Assembly: GCA_046482545.1 (NCBI GenBank)
Contig: JAWOEX010000035.1
Location: 128,001 to 192,000 of the forward strand
Direction: 5' to 3'
Length of the DNA: 64,000 bases
Source of the DNA: Candidatus Thorarchaeota archaeon
GTDB lineage: Archaea; Asgardarchaeota; Thorarchaeia; Thorarchaeales; Thorarchaeaceae
The position numbers and the translations under genes are program-made. The notes beneath the pieces are model-generated. The model did not search any database. It worked only from the letters and a program-made list of their open reading frames with translations, and was not told where the DNA came from. Shown piece after piece: positions 4,413 through 14,034 of the stretch. Each line of letters begins with the position of its first letter. Position 1 is the stretch's first letter.

Positions 4413-5246
4413 ATGAATCGAAATATTGGCTATGTAAATCGGGACAGCCCCATTCATAGACTCAATCCTGCCGTGAAGTTATTTAGCCTTGTTTCCGTGC
4501 TAGTAGCGACCATCATACTGTCTAGATGGTATATCACTTTTCTTCTACTAGTTGGTGTCATTATTGCATTCAAAATAGGTAGAGTTCCATTGAACCTTGC
4601 TGCTGACAGAACCAGATTTCTGATTACCTTTTCTGTTTTAATACTCGTTGTGCAGTTAATAGCAGTACAAAATGGCATGGTTATTTTCTATCTATTTCCT
4701 ACAGTTGAGGGAATTGGTCCGTTCTTTCCTGTAACAACTTTCGGTCTACAAAGAGGGCTAACATTTTCATTGAGGTTCATGTTGATTATCTTCTCAAGCA
4801 TGCTGTTCGTGGCTGTAACGGATCCCACACTCCTTGCTTACTCACTCACCGACTTGGGTATCCCTTATCGCTATAGTTTCGCACTAGTTATAGCTCTTCG
4901 TTTTGTTCCCTTTTTCGATATGGAAATGGACTCTGTTCGCATGGCTCAACGCTCTCGTGGGGTTTCTCCCCAAATTGGACGCCCCTCTAAACTACTGAGA
5001 ACGATTAGAATGACTTTCTATCCATTACTTGTATCTGCTTTCTCCAAGGCCAATTCTCTGACTATGTCAATGGATGGCAGAGGCTTTGGATATAATACGA
5101 CTCGTACTTATATTCGGAAGTCAACGTGGAAAAAAACAGATTGGGTAGTTTTGATGTTTTCCATCGCTTTTCTAATTGCTAGCCTTCTTCTTGTACTGTG
5201 TTTCTCCCACATATTCAAATTGGCGTACGAATACGGTTTCTACTAA
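4413..5246 (+). CDS. ecfT: ECF transporter T component
   Basis: SPIHRLNP, ALRFVP, AQRSRG and MDGRGF motifs. Confidence 0.93.
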   Translation: MNRNIGYVNRDSPIHRLNPAVKLFSLVSVLVATIILSRWYITFLLLVGVIIAFKIGRVPLNLAADRTRFLITFSVLILVVQLIAVQNGMVIFYLFPTVEGIGPFFPVTTFGLQRGLTFSLRFMLIIFSSMLFVAVTDPTLLAYSLTDLGIPYRYSFALVIALRFVPFFDMEMDSVRMAQRSRGVSPQIGRPSKLLRTIRMTFYPLLVSAFSKANSLTMSMDGRGFGYNTTRTYIRKSTWKKTDWVVLMFSIAFLIASLLLVLCFSHIFKLAYEYGFY

Positions 5247-5404
5247 GTTCCGGATCGAGTTTCTGATACAAGCCCCTGCAAGGCCTCGTTAACACTTGAC
5301 CTTTAATCCTTCACCATCACATTTGGCCATGATTTGGAGCATAACTCAAGGCACACACTCAATGTCATCACGAAGATGTCTAATTCCTGATAACCCATTT
5401 CTTA

Positions 5405-5600
5405 CAGTTGAGTGAGTGAACCCAACTGAGGAAACTTCTGTGTTCCACCCTTCCCTTGCCAGCGTCGCCGCCCCCACGGTACCCGCAGGCCCATGAGTCA
5501 GCAGGGGCTTTGTCCGCGTTCATCGGAACAGGGTTCCTCCTGCGGTCCAGGCTTCTGTCTCCTGTCGTCATTCCGGGTCATCACTCCCGGTGACAGCGAG
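5405..5600 (-). ncRNA. Putative TnpB omega-RNA (reRNA) scaffold; 5' end probably inside tnpB
   Basis: GC-rich structured tract just 3' of tnpB: ccgcagg/cctgcgg pair (5483-5489 with 5539-5545), gcccctgc/gtgggggc pair, terminal hairpin cagttgggt-tcactc-actcaactg; position expected for TnpB guide RNAs. Confidence 0.5.
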
Positions 5601-7254
5601 GTCTTCCACAGTTCTTGCCACGGCGTGGTCATGATCACCCACCTCAGCCTTGTCACCGTAGCTGAGGAGGTCCGTCTGGACATGGTGAACAGCCGCGGAC
5701 TCTCCGGAACCTGATGAAGTCCCTTGTTTGGAGAGTAAGGACTTCCGTCGAGAAGCACAAGGCTTCCCTCGGGCTTTCGGCCGCGCGCTTCGCGCTACTG
5801 CGCTAGCCCACTTGCCTAGTCCTCTCACGTCATGCAGTGATGAAGTGAGCGTAATGAGTCTTCCAGCGATGTTGATAGCGCCGTTCCTGTCTGCGTTGCA
5901 CCGGTTGCCACAGCTCGGGCAGATGAACCGGTCCTGCCGGGGTCTCCTGCCCTTGTTGCCACACTTCCAGCACATGATCGAGGTCCAGTTCTCTGGCACC
6001 ACCCTGAAGCGTGCATCCTTGCCTTCGACCGGCCAGCCAAGCTGCTCAAGATTGTGCTTGAGGCTCTCTGTTATCCGTGCGAACGCCCAGGAGTGGATCA
6101 TCCCCCGGAACCTGCGGCCTTTGTAGTTGCCGCGTCGAGCAGTGTACCTGATGTTCTTGAGCCGACCGATAGCCACGTAGAGGGTGTATCGCTCAGACAG
6201 CTCGGTGATATAATCGAGCATTTGACTGACCATGAACCGGTCATACTCTTTTGCTACACGGTATCTCTTTCCCTTCAGCTTTCGAAGTCGTGCTGCTATC
6301 TCATCATGAGGGTTGCCGTTGTTCTTCTGGGTATGCATCTTGTGCTGGAGCTGGGCAACCTGATCATCCAGTTGCTTGATTCGTTTGACCTTGTCTTCCT
6401 GCACCAAGTACCTGGTCTCCCGCACTTTCTGGGGAGTAACCAAACTTGTACAGGCCGCCTTCTCGATACCGAGGTCGATACCAAGAACAGCCTCTGGAAG
6501 GTCGTCATCAGGTGGCTCTGGCTTGTCGATTCTGACCGCAAAGGTCACCCACCATTTGCCTCGTCTATCCGTGAAAATCTGTAGGGCTTTGATTTCACCT
6601 CTTGAAAATTGGTTGGTATGGAACGGCGATACGTTGAGCGGAATAAGCAACCGGTCATGGACCCTTCGTCCTTCAGGTACTGAGTCCAGGGAATCCCGGA
6701 GGTCGAGCCACCACAGTGCGGTATGGGTATCATTCTCAATGAGCTTGAATCGTTGAGAAAACACCCAACGCGGAATCCGTCGAGACGAAGATAGTCTCCT
6801 GCAGGGGCGCGATGCCCTCCTGCCGTTCTTGTTCCTCAGCTCGAGGTAACTCTCGTACATCTGGACGGCTGTCTGTCTGCACTCAATCACTTCATTTGCT
6901 GACATCCGGGGAAACCGTTCCTTCATGTCATGGGGAACGGCCAGCCTCTGTTCGTACCCCTCTTTGACCTTGATTGCAGTCATGGTGAGCTTGTCCAGCT
7001 TACCGGCATCGATTTTCGTGCTTTTTTTTCCTTTCAGCAACTTATCCTCGTGTTCTTCGATGACTCCAAGGAAGGCATGGATGGCCCGGGTGTCTCGACC
7101 AACTATCTGCCTGAGTCGCTGCTGGGTCCGGTGTGTCATCACTGAGTACTTGATTGGCACCTTGACACTGATTGTTGTTCCCTGGGACCGGCCCATCGTC
7201 ATCGCCTTACGATATTTAAATCTCTAACCTGTTTCTGGCTAGTTGAGTTCACTC
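5414..7254 (-). mobile_element. Stand-alone TnpB element (no tnpA) bounded by imperfect 14-bp inverted repeats
   Basis: gagtgaacccaact (5414-5427) versus the reverse complement of 7241-7254, gagtgaactcaact (13/14 match), bracket tnpB; GC-richer than the flank. Confidence 0.55.
5568..7202 (-). CDS. tnpB: TnpB / Cas12f-like RNA-guided RuvC nuclease (544 aa) with rearranged catalytic site
   Basis: RuvC-I VLGIDLG; RuvC-II region VAIGRL; PENWTSIMCWKCG...FICPSCG Zn finger; RuvC-III NADRNGAINIA. Confidence 0.9.
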   Translation of the reverse strand: MTMGRSQGTTISVKVPIKYSVMTHRTQQRLRQIVGRDTRAIHAFLGVIEEHEDKLLKGKKSTKIDAGKLDKLTMTAIKVKEGYEQRLAVPHDMKERFPRMSANEVIECRQTAVQMYESYLELRNKNGRRASRPCRRLSSSRRIPRWVFSQRFKLIENDTHTALWWLDLRDSLDSVPEGRRVHDRLLIPLNVSPFHTNQFSRGEIKALQIFTDRRGKWWVTFAVRIDKPEPPDDDLPEAVLGIDLGIEKAACTSLVTPQKVRETRYLVQEDKVKRIKQLDDQVAQLQHKMHTQKNNGNPHDEIAARLRKLKGKRYRVAKEYDRFMVSQMLDYITELSERYTLYVAIGRLKNIRYTARRGNYKGRRFRGMIHSWAFARITESLKHNLEQLGWPVEGKDARFRVVPENWTSIMCWKCGNKGRRPRQDRFICPSCGNRCNADRNGAINIAGRLITLTSSLHDVRGLGKWASAVARSARPKARGKPCASRRKSLLSKQGTSSGSGESAAVHHVQTDLLSYGDKAEVGDHDHAVARTVEDLAVTGSDDPE

Positions 7255-7319
7255 CCCGGTTTGTTTTGAGAGAGGTTATTGAACTCATACTTCTATGTAT
7301 CATTATGATATTTAAATCT
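7211..7319. repeat. 13-bp direct repeat gatatttaaatct (7211-7223, 7307-7319) containing a TATA-like TTTAAATA on the - strand
   Basis: Exact repeat seen; it flanks the tnpB-proximal inverted repeat and a tgagttca/tgaactca hairpin. Confidence 0.6.
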
Positions 7320-7702
7320 ATTAAGCAAATTCAAAATAAAGCATTATGAAGTCCTTGTATCTAAAAAGAGCCGATATAAGACCTTATTATTAATTCTATT
7401 TGGGCTAGAAATACATATAAAGGATAATGGATTTCATGTGCATAAATGACCAAAAAAGACGGACAGAGGGCACATCAGCGCTATTTTCGGTAGAGTTTGT
7501 AGATACAATGATATTCCTCTGGTGGGTGAAGTACTCTGGTACTAGCCTGCCATACTGAATTGATCTGGTTTTGTCCCTGTTTGAGAAGACGAGGAGAGGA
7601 ACCTGAGGCCCACTATCGATTTCTGGAAAGTATTTTCGCGTGATATAGCTACTAGGAGTACTGCCACATCAGGAAATCGCACATTTCCACCCACCGTTTT
7701 AT

Positions 7703-7850
7703 GCATGGGTGTACATAAGAAGCTCTTCCACAATCATCCCTTCTGTACGGGTGTACGTAGGAGACCTTCCGGGACCGCCTCGTTCCGTACGGGTGTACAT
7801 AAGAAGCTCTTACGCAATAATGCCTCCTGTACGGCTGTACATAGTACTGT
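7703..7850. repeat. Four-unit tandem repeat, exact 42-bp period, core GTACGGGTGTACATAAG
   Basis: Units start at 7703, 7745, 7787 and 7829; units 1 and 3 are nearly identical (84-bp higher-order repeat). Confidence 0.9.
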
Positions 7851-7865
7851 TGTGAGGGGTGACAG

Positions 7866-8540
7866 ATGACTAGAAAACGGACCGTTTTCCCATCAGCAGC
7901 CAAGGTGAAATCCGGGGACGTGACTGACCCCATTGAGATCTACGTCAAGTCCATGCTTTCCAAAGGCAAGGAAGATAGGACGGGAATACTCATCGAGTCT
8001 GTATGGGGTGTGGAATACGAAACGAAAACAGTCCGTTTCGTCCGTGGAAACCTGATCACCCGTTTCACAAAACTCCCAATCCCCCCGTCTGATGTCCCAG
8101 ATCGGCACCTCCGGTCAGCAAGCGAAGTTGCCAGAGAGATATTCGACCTTGAGAGGTTCGATGGACTGGTTCTCACTGAAGCCCCTGACTTGAGTTCCGT
8201 GTATAAGGCGGAACGGGACTCTGATTCGAAGGTCTTCACAAGTGAACAGGACGCCCACATCTGGTGCTCGCTCATAGATGCCGATAGTACGCGAATCGTC
8301 CCCGTCCAGTCGAGTAAAGTTCCCCTAAGAGAGGCTCGAAAGAATAGCGAAGATGTCCGGAATACAGTCCTCCGGCTCCTCTACCAGGCCCTGGCCGGGT
8401 TGGAAGCCCTGGATACGCTGCATTCGATGCGGCAACGTGGCATAGGGGCAGCCGAGCTGGAGGAGATATGGACGAGGGTGTTCACTAAGAGACAGTTCCC
8501 CGACAAGCTTGCCAAAGTACTACATCGAGGGCAGCACTAG
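7866..8540 (+). CDS. Hypothetical protein (224 aa); probably the N-terminal part of the downstream giant gene
   Basis: ATG preceded by gaggggtga; overlaps the next ORF's open frame at 8446-8540. Confidence 0.65.
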   Translation: MTRKRTVFPSAAKVKSGDVTDPIEIYVKSMLSKGKEDRTGILIESVWGVEYETKTVRFVRGNLITRFTKLPIPPSDVPDRHLRSASEVAREIFDLERFDGLVLTEAPDLSSVYKAERDSDSKVFTSEQDAHIWCSLIDADSTRIVPVQSSKVPLREARKNSEDVRNTVLRLLYQALAGLEALDTLHSMRQRGIGAAELEEIWTRVFTKRQFPDKLAKVLHRGQH

Positions 8541-11500
8541 AGCAAATCCGGTGGTGGATGATGTGAACGATGGGTACCCAAAGAACCCCAGCAAGGTGCT
8601 GGGTAGGGCCATCTTCACCGGCCTGTCCACCCTCGTCCAGCTTGCTCGTAAGCGGGTGACCAAGCAACCGAAAGTCCAGCGACTGGTCGCAGGCATCGAG
8701 GAGATGTGGCAGGAAACGCGGGACGAACTGGAAGCGTTGAAAGATATACGTCCTCATGATTTTTCGCCAGTTCAGTCACGGGAGCCCAACATGCGGAAGA
8801 GCTTCCTTGGTGTGCTCTGGTGGACGACATGGTCGTATGGTAACACGGAGTTCAAGCGGGTGTACAGCTGGCAGGAGGGTACCATCGGCCCCCTCAACGA
8901 GCTCCTCAACTTCGCTGGGGCAGAGCTCCGTCTTGTGGCTATCACCCGCTATCCCTTCCCTGAGCCCAACTATTACCAGGTCTGGAAAACTCCAGATGAG
9001 CGGCGCATCGTTGTGGACACAAGTGTCACCAAGAAGGTCAGAGTGGAGAACTATGAGTCGGGATATGTGAAGGCGGGATACCCGGCCACATCCGGTTCTC
9101 CCCGGATCCTGCTCTGCCACCCGAGCCTGCCGAGTCTCGACTTTGTGGATATGATTCGTGCACATGTGGTCGAACTCATCCGACAGTGCTTCATCCACAA
9201 CGTCCCAAAGAAAGATGCCCAGCGGTATATCCGGCTGCTCATCTACAGGCTGAGGCCCTTCTTGGACTGGGTCTACACGGATGGGGAGTACGGGCGCAAG
9301 CATTTCCATCCCGGGGCGACTCAGGAACTGATGAAAATCGTCAAAGAAATCCGAGCTGTCTATTCCCGAACCACGGTAAAGGTCGCTCGGTTGACCCACC
9401 AGCTCGACAAGGAGGATGGGGATGAAAGCGCTGAGAAGTTTAGGTCCCCGACCGTCGCCGACATCGTACAACAGCTCAAGGCTGCATTTGAACGGGATTC
9501 CTCTGACCAAACCAAACACATCGTCCGCAGCATCCTGAAACGCATCAAGCTGAGTGACCTCAAGGATGATGAGCTAGGGGCGTTCGTTGGCCAGATGATG
9601 CCTAAGAATGAAAAAGGGGAGCAGGACGACAGCGAAAAGAAGGACCGGGAGAGTGCCCTGACAGACAAGGACGCAGAGGATTTCGTAGAAAAGATTGAGA
9701 CAATGTCGATGCGGCAGGGTAACTACTGGCACAAATTCTTGTTCAGTGACATGTACCACCCGTACTCGCTGAAAGCGGCTGTCTTCTATGGAGACAGGGG
9801 CCTGGACAAACCTGATGACACGCTTATAGCCGCAGAGGTTCCTGTAAGCGGCACAGAAGGAGCGGGGCAGGCAGATATCGTGGTGTTTGTCCGGCGGGAT
9901 GTAGGTGACCGCGCAGTATGGACACCTGTGATGCTCCTTGATGTCAAGACGAAGACTGGGATAGACTGGGAACTCTTGGGTGTACGACCCAGGTCGAAAA
10001 AGGACGCGAGAGTTCCGTATTTCTACCTCAGCAAACGCCCCCTGAGCCAGGATGAATGGGAACACATCGTAGCGACGGCACCTTCGAAAAGGAGTCGTGG
10101 ACAGCTCGAAGCATATGAGACGAATCTCCTGCAGGAGTACAAGAGTATCATTGCAGACGCCGAAGCCCCAAAGAAGCTGTATCGGGGTGTCGTGCTCGTC
10201 GATGCAAGTGAGGACAGGTTCACCGTTTTTGACGCACTGCCCGGGTTGATTCGGGAAGTCCTCGACAGGGTCAGTTATGTGCCGGGTTCACCCAACGCTC
10301 CTGTCGCATATACGATCGCAATGTCCGATGGCCCAGAGCAAGCGACGAGCCCACATATCGCACTCGTCTTGGAGGACACAACAGGGCCCTCCTCCCTGCT
10401 GGGAAGGACCATGCCACTTACGGAAATCGAAGGGACTGACCCCTTCGCATCACGAAAGAAAGACGATACCCTGTTCACCCTCTACCTCTCCGTAGGCTCA
10501 TCTATTTCAGCCGGGCCATCAGCAGCCTGGGTCTCAAGGAACTGGCACCTGCTGAATCACCTTCGTGAGCAGTTCGAGCACACCGGGGACACCCCGGACG
10601 TTGTGTGGGTAGACCTGCTTGGTGATCTCCCAACGCAGGAGCTCGCCATAACACGACTGAGGCTTGACATGCAGTGGTTGTCCCCGGAATGGGAAGAGCA
10701 TATCCAGGGACTCAGAGATCTCTTCGAGGATATCCGTATCATCGACCTCAGGGACAAGGTGATTGACGCCGTCTTTGGGACAGACAAAGATACCATCTAT
10801 AACCTGAAAGTTGCACTACGGGAAGAGCTGTCCGCAAAGGAAACGCAGCTGGTGGTCCTCGATGGCTGGGCAAACCTCCGCGATATGAGCCCTCGGCGTT
10901 GTACCAACACGCTCGATGCCCTTGAGTATGCATTGGTCGAGTGCCTGAAAGGCACGGCTGACGAGGTGGTCTGGCTAGACAGGCCAGTCCCGTCGGCAAA
11001 GACATCAGCGATGTATCAGAAACGGAAGATGAATCCCCTACCCCACGACTCTCCGCGGCAACGCCTGCTGGACGAGATCATCTGGAACCTGCCGACCCCG
11101 CCCAAAGTCCTGGGCTGGAAATCACCCCTGCGGGAAGATGTCCGGGTGATAGTCCAGGACACGGCGACCAATGTCCCTCCCTGGAAGACCAGTATCTTCG
11201 TACCACACCTCACAGCTTGGGCAGAACGTTTCCGGGGATACTCGCGAGAGGACAGGACGGTGAGCTTTGAGGAGGTACGTGAGGCACAGCTCCAACCCAT
11301 GTATGGACGAGGCGTGACGCTCAGCTCTGTCTCCTGCAATGTCTCAGCTCTTCCGCCATACACCACTGAGGATGTCTGTGCCGACGCTGCCTTGCTGGCG
11401 CCGAGCCTTGAGCGGCGAGATGAAGACACGGCTGAAACAGAATACTCTGAGACAGACTGGTTTGAAGTCCAAAGGATGGAAACGGCGGTTCCAAGAGGAT

Positions 11501-13476
11501 ACGACAGTGACGGACGCGAACTACTCAAGCACATGACGTTCAAAGTCCTCGGTAACGCAGAACCAGTGGACGAAGATGAAAGGAAGGAGGGCGACCCAGG
11601 CCCTCTCTACACCTCACCTGATACCATCACCAGGGGCTGGAGACGGTGGAAGCCGAGTGTTGAAGAACAGCAGGAGAAGGAGCGGGACGACAGCACACGG
11701 GGAGTATTGAGGCCGCCCCCGGTCGCTCCTACTAGGTCGAAGTACATCGATACGTTCGAGACGCGGAGGCAGGAGCTCGTCCGCTTTCGCAATACTCTGC
11801 GGTTTGTGAGGAAGATGACTCCTCAGCATGAGACTGGGCAATGGAAAGAGCTACTCAATGAGCTTGCAGAGATTGCAGAGGCGGCGTTTACATCAAGGGG
11901 ATTGACATGGACACCTCTCGAAGTATTGCAAGACATCAAGCGCAAGCTCCAAAGGAACTCTCAATCGAAATCCATGTGGAACCTCTTGCAAGGAGTACGG
12001 GAAGACATCCTTGCCGAGTTACACCTGCACATCCGGACAACAATTGCCGACATCAGGAAACACAATCCGGAGATCTTGTCCCTCTACGGCAATCACTTCG
12101 TCCTGCTATTGCTTGCACTTGAGAGGAGGCAGTTGATTCAGAACCAAGGGCCTGTGCTTAACATCCTTTGGCGCGTGTTCTGGTGCTGGCAGCTTATACA
12201 GATGGGATTTGCAACAAAAGAGCAAGAGCTCGTTACTACAAAATACGATGTCCACGCCATCTGGTCGAACTTGGTCTGGAGAGCCAAGATACTCGCAGAA
12301 ACGATCCGCTTTACCCGGCCAACGGATGTGGTTAGGCGTGCGGTAAGGGTCTCAAATGAGCAGGAAAACGATTTCTGGATGTTCATCGAGGACGCACCGG
12401 GGAGCGACAGGTTTGAGGTGGCGTATATCCCCCTGGAAGGCAGGAGGAACTTCTGGGGATGGCACCCAGCTGAAACAGACCTGAAATTGTTGGCACATAA
12501 AGCTGAATGGACAGGGGCAACGGACGAAGCAAACTATGTTATCACGAGGGTACAGGGGAACGACATCCTGTGGAAGGCGTACCTCGATTCCACGATTGGT
12601 GAATTCTGGAACCCCATTTGCATCATAGAGTACGGGCCGCCCCCACCCGACAGGCCTTTTCCGATACGATGGGTGAAGAAATCAACAGTGCCAAACGAAC
12701 TACGCTCCCTCTCTTCCCCGCCGTTTGACCTGAAAAGCCAGACACTCGAATACGAACGAATCAGGGGACTTCTCAAAGAAATCGAGGCATATAGTGACCG
12801 GGTGAAGGAGGTGGTATGCCGGTTGTCGCTCGACATGGACGAAAGGGCATATGAGATACAGTTCATCGATTCGTACAGAGGAGAGACGGTGGCTGTCCAT
12901 AAGGCCAAGCGGACAGCCGAAGTACTCCAAGTGCTGAGGGGGCCGTTGTCAGAGCAGGCGCCCTTCGAGACCGAGGATGGTCAGGTCTTGATATGGGACA
13001 CGCGCCAGGACGTGGAGTATACTGATGTCGAGACAGAGGACCGGGTGTTCAGTCTGAGTATGCTCAGGCCCTTTGTGCACAGGAACAAGGTATTGACAGG
13101 AACCATTGTCATCCCGAGGACGGCAGAGGAGCTGCTGGAGAGCTCTGTAGGTGAAGAAGTGAGACTCGTTTTTACCCCTGAAAGGATGTTGGAAGGTTAT
13201 CCAGAAGATAGCACTGGCTGGAGAATATGGTTTAATGAATTCGATTTCGGAGAAACACTGCTGAAATTGGATGATATACGGTTGAGCATCTATGATGTCG
13301 GCCACCTGATCGAGAGCAGGCAACTCTATGACAGTGATACCAGGAAACTGCATCCCATGTATGTCATCTTGAACAGGGTCAAGGACTTCTCTACTCGGGC
13401 TGGCCTCTCGGAGTTCCCGTTGTTCGACGAGAAGCTCAGAGAGAGTAAAGAGCCCAAGCCGCCCTCGAGGAGCTGA
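8509..13476 (+). CDS. Giant multidomain hypothetical protein with a RecB-like PD-(D/E)XK nuclease and a degenerate RecA/KaiC-like domain
   Basis: 1655-codon ORF; AEVPV...GQADIV...LLDVKT...QLEAY nuclease motifs; VVWVDL and LVVLDG strands without an intact Walker A. Confidence 0.75.
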   Translation: MPKYYIEGSTRANPVVDDVNDGYPKNPSKVLGRAIFTGLSTLVQLARKRVTKQPKVQRLVAGIEEMWQETRDELEALKDIRPHDFSPVQSREPNMRKSFLGVLWWTTWSYGNTEFKRVYSWQEGTIGPLNELLNFAGAELRLVAITRYPFPEPNYYQVWKTPDERRIVVDTSVTKKVRVENYESGYVKAGYPATSGSPRILLCHPSLPSLDFVDMIRAHVVELIRQCFIHNVPKKDAQRYIRLLIYRLRPFLDWVYTDGEYGRKHFHPGATQELMKIVKEIRAVYSRTTVKVARLTHQLDKEDGDESAEKFRSPTVADIVQQLKAAFERDSSDQTKHIVRSILKRIKLSDLKDDELGAFVGQMMPKNEKGEQDDSEKKDRESALTDKDAEDFVEKIETMSMRQGNYWHKFLFSDMYHPYSLKAAVFYGDRGLDKPDDTLIAAEVPVSGTEGAGQADIVVFVRRDVGDRAVWTPVMLLDVKTKTGIDWELLGVRPRSKKDARVPYFYLSKRPLSQDEWEHIVATAPSKRSRGQLEAYETNLLQEYKSIIADAEAPKKLYRGVVLVDASEDRFTVFDALPGLIREVLDRVSYVPGSPNAPVAYTIAMSDGPEQATSPHIALVLEDTTGPSSLLGRTMPLTEIEGTDPFASRKKDDTLFTLYLSVGSSISAGPSAAWVSRNWHLLNHLREQFEHTGDTPDVVWVDLLGDLPTQELAITRLRLDMQWLSPEWEEHIQGLRDLFEDIRIIDLRDKVIDAVFGTDKDTIYNLKVALREELSAKETQLVVLDGWANLRDMSPRRCTNTLDALEYALVECLKGTADEVVWLDRPVPSAKTSAMYQKRKMNPLPHDSPRQRLLDEIIWNLPTPPKVLGWKSPLREDVRVIVQDTATNVPPWKTSIFVPHLTAWAERFRGYSREDRTVSFEEVREAQLQPMYGRGVTLSSVSCNVSALPPYTTEDVCADAALLAPSLERRDEDTAETEYSETDWFEVQRMETAVPRGYDSDGRELLKHMTFKVLGNAEPVDEDERKEGDPGPLYTSPDTITRGWRRWKPSVEEQQEKERDDSTRGVLRPPPVAPTRSKYIDTFETRRQELVRFRNTLRFVRKMTPQHETGQWKELLNELAEIAEAAFTSRGLTWTPLEVLQDIKRKLQRNSQSKSMWNLLQGVREDILAELHLHIRTTIADIRKHNPEILSLYGNHFVLLLLALERRQLIQNQGPVLNILWRVFWCWQLIQMGFATKEQELVTTKYDVHAIWSNLVWRAKILAETIRFTRPTDVVRRAVRVSNEQENDFWMFIEDAPGSDRFEVAYIPLEGRRNFWGWHPAETDLKLLAHKAEWTGATDEANYVITRVQGNDILWKAYLDSTIGEFWNPICIIEYGPPPPDRPFPIRWVKKSTVPNELRSLSSPPFDLKSQTLEYERIRGLLKEIEAYSDRVKEVVCRLSLDMDERAYEIQFIDSYRGETVAVHKAKRTAEVLQVLRGPLSEQAPFETEDGQVLIWDTRQDVEYTDVETEDRVFSLSMLRPFVHRNKVLTGTIVIPRTAEELLESSVGEEVRLVFTPERMLEGYPEDSTGWRIWFNEFDFGETLLKLDDIRLSIYDVGHLIESRQLYDSDTRKLHPMYVILNRVKDFSTRAGLSEFPLFDEKLRESKEPKPPSRS

Positions 13477-13624
13477 CAGGGTGGTAGATATGAAGGGCGC
13501 AGATTTGTTAAGCTCATCACATAACCTACAATCCCAACGTAGGTGCCCGAACTCCTGCTATACGGGTAAGATATCGACTTGGTGTATGCAGGATGGTCTA
13601 TCTCCCACACGAGGTAACAGGAAA

Positions 13625-13677
13625 TTTTACAGAAATCTTACACTTTTATACCCTGATTTTTTAGGATTTTTGTAAAA
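13625..13677. repeat. ~16-bp imperfect inverted repeat (possible terminator or element end)
   Basis: ttttacagaaatctta ... taggatttttgtaaaa. Confidence 0.5.
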
Positions 13678-14034
13678 CTTAACCATTCCTGAGCTGGCTA
13701 ACATGCCCACGTAGCTGTTCGATGTTCGTCTTGATTGCTCTTGACACTTCTTGTCTGATGCTTTCCTACTCAACTTCTTCATCTTGTTTGATTCTTCGTC
13801 GACGGAGTATAATAGCATCATATTTGATATTCCTGACATTAGAGACATGTGTGCTTCTTCCCATTTCACTTCCGATTCTTCAAGACCCCATCACAAAGAA
13901 TCCTGTATCTAGGATTGCTTATGCGAGGGCTTTCCATGCTTCTAGCTCCCTATGATTAGAAGTGAATATCACCAAGCATCTTAAGGGCACTCTATTCGCG
14001 GGTATCTCATGGAGACATTCTCTGAGAATCACGG

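Follow-up and report, generated by a model that had tools for sequence, protein, structure and literature searches.

The locus described here raises the question of whether a TnpB protein that lacks the canonical glutamate of its RuvC active site, and carries another one further along, is still a working nuclease, and whether such an arrangement in an Asgard archaeon says anything about the origin of the eukaryotic Fanzors. The gene in question, tnpB, lies in a window of 64,000 nucleotides (the whole stretch of DNA that was analyzed, to which the coordinates refer) from contig JAWOEX010000035.1 of a Candidatus Thorarchaeota archaeon. The reading regarded here as quite probable is that of a competent alternative-glutamate TnpB, belonging to a transposon of the aCas1-TnpB type and to a lineage other than that of the Fanzors. 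The product of this open reading frame would be an RNA-guided DNA endonuclease of the TnpB type that is capable of catalysis, with the triad D243, E404, and D438, in which the middle carboxylate (E404) would come from the strand preceding the zinc finger, the canonical strand having a glycine. The arrangement would have been inherited from a broad, Asgard-dominated clade with D-Phi-G and the alternative glutamate, and the class would be that of the published TnpB2 or RuvC-II-rearranged TnpBs, not the Fanzor (D-P-G) lineage. The protein would be the nuclease that uses the guide RNA in a transposon of 8.3 kb, which also encodes a giant protein with Cas1-, Cas4-, and RecA-like parts. Residues and conservation, fold, neighborhood, and copy structure are direct observations; catalysis by E404, guidance by an RNA, and a role in the maintenance of the transposon are presumed.

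The gene and the elements of its RuvC site are located as follows:

5568..7202, minus strand: tnpB open reading frame, 544 amino acids (open reading frame call; Pfam, NCBIfam, and AlphaFold2)
6474..6476, minus strand: GAC codon of the RuvC-I aspartate D243 in G-I-D-L-G (D-Phi-G, not D-P-G), by codon mapping; invariant in relatives
6165..6167, minus strand: GGT codon of the glycine G346 (VAIGRL) at the canonical RuvC-II glutamate position, aligned to the catalytic glutamate of Cas12f
5991..5993, minus strand: GAG codon of the alternative RuvC-II glutamate E404 (VPENWTS), invariant in 64 sequences
5910..5972, minus strand: C4 zinc finger, C411/C414 and C428/C431, by codon mapping; conserved in relatives
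5889..5891, minus strand: GAC codon of the RuvC-III aspartate D438 in N-A-D-R-N, by codon mapping; conserved

An earlier, sequence-only reading of this DNA had given the coordinates of D243, G346, E404, and D438 and a distance of 58 residues between G346 and E404, all of which codon mapping found to be exact. In the stretch E404-N-W-T-S-I-M-C411, the glutamate stands six residues ahead of the first CxxC and 34 ahead of D438. The features by which a TnpB is recognized are present in the product: a split RuvC with three acidic residues, and a C4 zinc finger that separates RuvC-II from RuvC-III. The protein matches the Pfam family Cas12f1-like_TNB (PF07282) at 2.4e-12, above the Pfam cut-off, and the NCBIfam model guided_TnpB at 4.8e-26, with 91.9 bits. 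These matches, a Cas12f/TnpB fold, and homologues in Asgard archaea uphold the proposal of a probable TnpB in an Asgard archaeon. In the AlphaFold2 model, the folded part covers approximately residues 1-475 and residues 485-544 are disordered, and at the other end the starts of the homologues match the third codon of the open reading frame (M3, 7196).

In a search of PDB sequences with a profile of 15 family members, the VAIGRL strand aligns with the ..IQMEDL.. RuvC-II strand of AsCas12f, where the glycine falls on the catalytic glutamate, and E-N-W-T-S aligns with P-Q-Y-T-S directly before the zinc finger. Yoon et al. describe the alternative glutamate (Ealt) as one that precedes the first CxxC by six residues, the ExxxxxxCxxC rule (PMC10711439), and E404 is identified as Ealt because its spacing to C411 fits this rule exactly. 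The 34 residues between E404 and D438 are also equal to the spacing of Glu467 and Asp501 in the triad of ApmFanzor2, as seen by cryogenic electron microscopy (PMC11832414). Within the 15 family members, which share 48-89% identity and take in three paralogues from the same genome at 48-57%, D243, G346, E404, W406, T407, S408, and D438 are invariant. Across 64 sequences, down to ~21% identity, D243, G245, E404, T407, and S408 are still invariant, and G346 and D438 are conserved in at least 90%; all four cysteines of the zinc finger are conserved in both alignments. A glycine at the canonical site together with a conserved relocated glutamate, as proposed from the sequence alone, is thereby borne out, and the possibility which that proposal had raised against itself, an unconserved glutamate, is answered by the invariance of E404. 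Over residues 1-455, codon positions 1/2/3 differ pairwise by ~0.3/0.2/0.6, and the tnpB product is therefore under purifying selection. Judged from these alignments, the pattern of G346 plus E404 is not due to chance.

The arrangement is not confined to this gene. Among GTDB species representatives, the search recovered 80 loci, every one of them Asgard (80/80), the close TnpB homologues being named Thorarchaeota or Promethearchaeia and the more distant ones Heimdall- and Odinarchaeia. Of 150 sampled genomes of the phylum, 26 belong to the same family as the window, and 19 of these have close relatives (E<=1e-40), which also occur in a minority of the genomes of four other families. The canonical glutamate without Ealt occurs in only three of 70 relatives, and two further rows were scored as other, one of them an Ealt protein with a glutamate beside the glycine and one a truncated sequence. 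In a maximum-likelihood tree of 63 proteins, which holds the recovered relatives only, all 61 complete relatives with glycine and Ealt make up one clade, in which the TnpB of the window is deeply nested, and the two usable canonical-glutamate proteins fall outside it. These comparisons indicate that the rearrangement was already present in the ancestor of a broad Asgard clade, and is not private to this locus, because glycine and Ealt are common to the relatives recovered and the canonical-glutamate proteins lie outside the clade. The suggestion of an independent rearrangement, in the sense of a private Asgard event at the locus, has to be given up, the arrangement being common to the Ealt relatives recovered.

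The AlphaFold2 model of TnpB was built on the 64-sequence alignment and is a confident one, with a predicted local distance difference test score (pLDDT) of 85.4 and a predicted template modeling score (pTM) of 0.79. In this model, D243 closes strand 237-244, G346 lies within strand 340-347, E404 comes right after strand 399-403, and D438 starts helix 437-452. The rearranged site described by Altae-Tran et al. has its glutamate on strand 5 instead of strand 4 (PMC10691335), and the topology predicted here is the same. The structure prediction that had been called for to place the glutamate in the D-E-D pocket agrees with the proposal in one part, as E404 ends the strand before the zinc finger as expected, whereas its position in the pocket itself is presumed from topology and homology. 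Residue conservation, purifying selection, and a confident model with E404 near the zinc finger make it likely that TnpB with the relocated glutamate is an active nuclease, as the sequence-only reading had also supposed.

It is very unlikely, by comparison, that TnpB is nuclease-dead or binds DNA only (TldR-like), with E404 in a structural role and the loss of the canonical glutamate amounting to a real inactivation. In favor of this reading, the canonical RuvC-II glutamate is absent, and many loci are found at the same flank in different metagenome-assembled genomes, a hint of low mobility. However, dead derivatives typically lack catalytic residues or are truncated, and here D243, E404, D438, and the four cysteines are conserved down to ~21% identity, and RuvC-III is not truncated at its C-terminal side. 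Homologous enzymes with the alternative glutamate are active as well: TnpBs of the rearranged type and Fanzors both cleave DNA, for which they require this residue, and the E467A substitution abolishes the activity of ApmFanzor2 (PMC10530073). Recent transposition of the element is also evident. What does weigh against a competent TnpB in an aCas1-TnpB-type transposon is that the guided_TnpB score of 91.9 stays below the NCBIfam cut-off of 100, that E404 was placed by its topology and by homology, and that the giant partner was assigned to Cas1 by a modeled fold similarity, with Z 12.9 on a helical domain.

Regarding the Fanzors, the glycine and relocated glutamate had been presented as their hallmark, which is an overstatement. 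An archaeal member of the rearranged clades, TvTnpB from Thermoplasma volcanium, has been shown to cleave DNA, and glycine or proline plus an alternative glutamate marks large prokaryotic clades, such as TnpB2 (PMC10530073) or RIIr-5 and other RIIr branches (PMC10691335). The fingerprint of Fanzors consists of D-P-G in RuvC-I plus the alternative glutamate, and their descent is traced to cyanobacterial IS607 TnpBs, the pro-Fanzors, with Ealt and D-Phi-G defining a separate prokaryotic clade (PMC10711439). In that study, canonical-glutamate and alternative-glutamate proteins split cleanly, the latter being one clade with a D-Phi-G and a D-P-G half (PMC10711439). An Asgard clade that is sister to the Fanzors or their source, the eukaryotic enzymes coming from Asgard archaea and not from cyanobacterial IS607 elements, is extremely unlikely. 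If true, the archaeal ancestor of eukaryotes would already have had the relocated glutamate, and the scenario of cyanobacterial pro-Fanzors would tell only part of the story. Both groups do share the alternative glutamate, the canonical-site glycine, the E-x-[WY]-T-S motif, and the 34-residue glutamate-aspartate spacing (that of ApmFanzor2), and the single Ealt clade of Yoon et al. makes a deep common origin of the rearrangement possible (PMC10711439). Against this kinship, RuvC-I has D-L-G, and an exhaustive representative search found D-P-G in none of 70 full-length relatives, all of which have D-[LFIV]-G; the 98.9%-complete genome has no match to PF00239, the serine recombinase family, and the partner of tnpB is a Cas1-like giant protein. 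Nearness to Fanzors was judged by proxies, namely sequence and fold scores. In the PDB profile search, canonical-glutamate Cas12f and TnpB proteins are found at E 6.7e-14 to 1e-9 and ApmFanzor2 at 5.5e-4; SpuFz1 is not matched with the 15-member profile, and the segment with Ealt, zinc finger, and RuvC-III, used alone as the query, returns no Fanzor at E<=10. Foldseek puts Cas12f first (5.7e-16) and ApmFanzor2 at rank 29 (1.3e-9), and VIA-align gives Z 18.4-19.8 for Cas12f and 17.1 for ISDra2 TnpB, over ~380 residues for Cas12f/TnpB, versus 16.0 for ApmFanzor2. A specific Fanzor connection of the Asgard TnpB is thus not supported, because of the D-L-G motif, the lack of a serine recombinase in the genome, and the greater nearness of canonical-glutamate Cas12f/TnpB than of Fanzor2, and the relevance to Fanzor origins that had been suggested falls on the same points. 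The host had further been called a member of the archaeal lineage closest to eukaryotes, but Thorarchaeota are not that Asgard lineage. A separate possibility, less likely than a shared rearrangement but far from negligible, is that the Asgard-dominated clade rearranged independently of Fanzors and pro-Fanzors and converged on the strand-5 glutamate. It would agree with the finding of Altae-Tran et al. that RuvC-II is rearranged in two major clades and in eight large branches, of which several are limited to archaea (PMC10691335), with the nearness of the Asgard clade to canonical-glutamate Cas12f/TnpB in sequence and fold, and with a RuvC-I motif and a transposase partner that are both unlike those of Fanzors. 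Yoon et al., on the other hand, place all alternative-glutamate proteins together (PMC10711439), and the trait does not change within the sampled tree, so origins cannot be counted there.

The competent, non-Fanzor TnpB preferred here is encoded in a transposon that spans 5391-13684 (8.3 kb) and has an exact 8-bp target-site duplication, TCAGGAAT, on both sides. Its ends and leaders are found at these positions:

5383..5390, minus strand: right copy of the 8-bp duplication TCAGGAAT
13685..13692, minus strand: left copy of the 8-bp duplication TCAGGAAT
13617..13684, minus strand: left-end leader common to the solo copies, which resemble miniature inverted-repeat transposable elements (84.6% over 65 nt)
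7203..7320, minus strand: conserved upstream leader of tnpB, in which TTTAAATA and an incomplete copy of the right-end motif are found

Approximately 60 derivative copies are present in the genome, some of them 98% alike. These solo copies have a ~170-nt leader that is unlike the sequence upstream of tnpB and recurs at 13617-13684, just beyond the open reading frame of 1655 amino acids. Their first 6-8 flanking bases co-vary on the left and right (TCTAGA/TCTAGA, TCTTGA/TCTTGA, TCATGA/TCATGA), and the duplications measure 6-8 bp with the consensus TC-N-N-G-A-R. Since they have the same left leader, the same right end, and duplications of their own, the solo copies are internally deleted, non-autonomous derivatives of the 8.3-kb transposon. 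Membership of the IS200/IS605 family was ruled out by the target duplications of 6-8 bp and by the lack of an adjacent Y1 gene; the single Y1 (IS200/IS605-type) TnpA gene of the genome, at contig C24:6161-6457, adjoins no tnpB and no solo copy.

Other traces of the element include a degraded module at contig C28:69693-73592, where tnpB fragments with several stops lie beside a C-terminal fragment of the giant gene. The G+C content is 0.55-0.56 across the giant gene (8000-12000) versus ~0.44-0.45 elsewhere in the window, which is consistent with a mobile origin. In the upstream leader of tnpB, the partial motif reads ..TCAACTAGCCAGAAACAGGTTAGAG, compared with ..TCAACTGTAAGAAATGGGTTATCAG at the right end, and is preceded by the reverse complement of GTTCACTC.

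The partner of tnpB within the transposon is the following gene:

8509..13476, plus strand: giant protein of 1655 amino acids, divergent from tnpB (AlphaFold2 and fold matches)

This gene is divergently paired with tnpB in 42 of the 80 Asgard loci, and the genome holds four intact paralogous modules of tnpB and giant gene. The protein has more than 140 homologues, all of them hypothetical proteins of Thorarchaeota, and searches of Pfam, PADLOC, and PDB sequences returned nothing for it. The AlphaFold2 model of residues 1-950 has a pLDDT of 82, and three regions can be told apart in it. The helical region at residues ~17-275 matches ten Cas1/casposase entries (Z 9.3-12.9) and is matched by no other fold. 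Residues ~440-540 resemble a PD-(D/E)xK nuclease of the Cas4/RecB type (MGME1, Z 8.9), with D456, D478-x-K480, and Q532xxxY536, and residues ~650-950 have a RecA-like fold without a Walker A motif (no GK[ST]). An hhalign comparison of the N-terminal domain with Thor Cas1 was not significant (E 0.11), although it aligns the region of the Cas1 catalytic motif, and the Pfam family PF01867 (Cas1) has no match in the genome. A single local profile alignment to Cas1 was obtained, and in it a conserved tyrosine, Y256, stands at the position of the catalytic histidine. An open reading frame of 224 amino acids lies between tnpB and the giant gene (7866-8540, plus strand), overlapping the start of the latter, and has no family match. 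Aloposons (PMC8813620) were considered and ruled out, as these carry tandem genes for 3,000-6,000 amino acids, have tRNAs as targets, and lack TnpB.

At the 3' end of tnpB, a candidate guide-RNA module reaches the right end of the element:

5391..5823, minus strand: predicted omegaRNA-like module, ~433 nt (blastn, tblastn, codon divergence, and RNAalifold)
5413..5421, minus strand: GTTCACTCA motif, conserved in other Thor loci

Read from 5823 to 5391, the module comprises the last ~85 codons of tnpB and the next 180 nt, and blastn and tblastn find ~60 copies of it across the genome, with 70-90% identity. In the tail of the open reading frame the codon positions diverge equally (0.28/0.30/0.33) and codon periodicity is absent; because the three positions diverge equally, the module is constrained as nucleic acid. 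RNAalifold kept 96 of 100 pairs on 23 copies, and Rfam has no match within 5200-7500. The ~433-nt module is probably the guide-RNA scaffold, as far as can be told from the sequence. The annotated C terminus of TnpB is probably read-through of the guide-RNA gene, since the tail is a dispersed repeat, has no codon periodicity, and is predicted to be disordered. The GTTCACTCA motif has been reported downstream of aCas1-associated Asgard tnpB genes (PMC10691335), and it is also found downstream of tnpB in ~30 other Thor loci. In this locus, GTTCACTCA lies between pairable bases, CAGTTG...CAACTG (5395-5440, minus strand), and other genomes have other arms. The published 'hypervariable region' upstream of GTTCACTCA may be a hairpin arm rather than a guide. 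A stem test of this hairpin across genomes was not significant, with a mean stem of 5.2 versus 4.4 in chimeric controls.

Among known systems, the rearranged TnpBs (TnpB2, RIIr, and D-Phi-G/Ealt proteins such as TvTnpB) have the canonical-site glycine, Ealt six residues before the zinc finger, the D-Phi-G of RuvC-I, the NADxN motif of RuvC-III, and the compact TnpB/Cas12f fold in common with the Asgard system; their guide RNA lies at the 3' end of the gene, where the Asgard system has its candidate scaffold. Unlike them, the Asgard protein is longer (~475 folded residues plus a tail), its predicted scaffold module measures ~433 nt, its partner is a giant Cas1-like protein and not a Y1 or serine TnpA, and its element makes an 8-bp duplication. 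Fanzor2 and the pro-Fanzors (ApmFz2, PDB 9B0L) place the alternative glutamate in the same way relative to the zinc finger and RuvC-III, and ApmFz2 has the same overall fold (Z 16.0 over 378 aligned residues); the Asgard TnpB differs in having D-L-G for D-P-G, in lacking an IS607 TnpA, a nuclear localization signal, and an N-terminal extension, and in its Asgard host, the hosts of Fanzors and pro-Fanzors being eukaryotic, viral, or cyanobacterial. The best matches are Cas12f (AsCas12f, OsCas12f) and ISDra2 TnpB, with Z 17-20, E down to 6.7e-14, and the same domain order, but these use the canonical RuvC-II glutamate, which the Asgard TnpB does not, and Cas12f serves CRISPR arrays.

Two Asgard-linked groups of aCas1-associated TnpBs, Cas1H-Asgard-1 and -2, have already been catalogued (PMC10691335). 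The element agrees with these aCas1-TnpB groups, which were described by Altae-Tran et al. in 2023. As in the Cas1H-Asgard systems, the host is an Asgard archaeon, tnpB lies beside a highly diverged Cas1 homologue (here a putative one, Cas1-like by fold), the locus is flanked by repeats, and GTTCACTCA is found downstream of tnpB. Unlike in those systems, the bases ahead of GTTCACTCA are not hypervariable in the genome, and close to the right end the motif apparently forms part of a hairpin loop.

Both the rearrangement and the association of Asgard TnpBs with aCas1 are already in the literature, which makes this a solid but not a new case. The picture of Fanzor origins is left unchanged by the locus, since neither the D-P-G half of the fingerprint nor the IS607 context is present and the arrangement has already been published. 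The locus is instead a clean archaeal example of a relocated RuvC glutamate. It belongs to a family that has several intact paralogues in each genome, a candidate scaffold of great length, and an unusual Cas1-like partner, which makes it a reasonable candidate for biochemistry, including cleavage, lack of collateral activity, and the transposon-adjacent motif (TAM).

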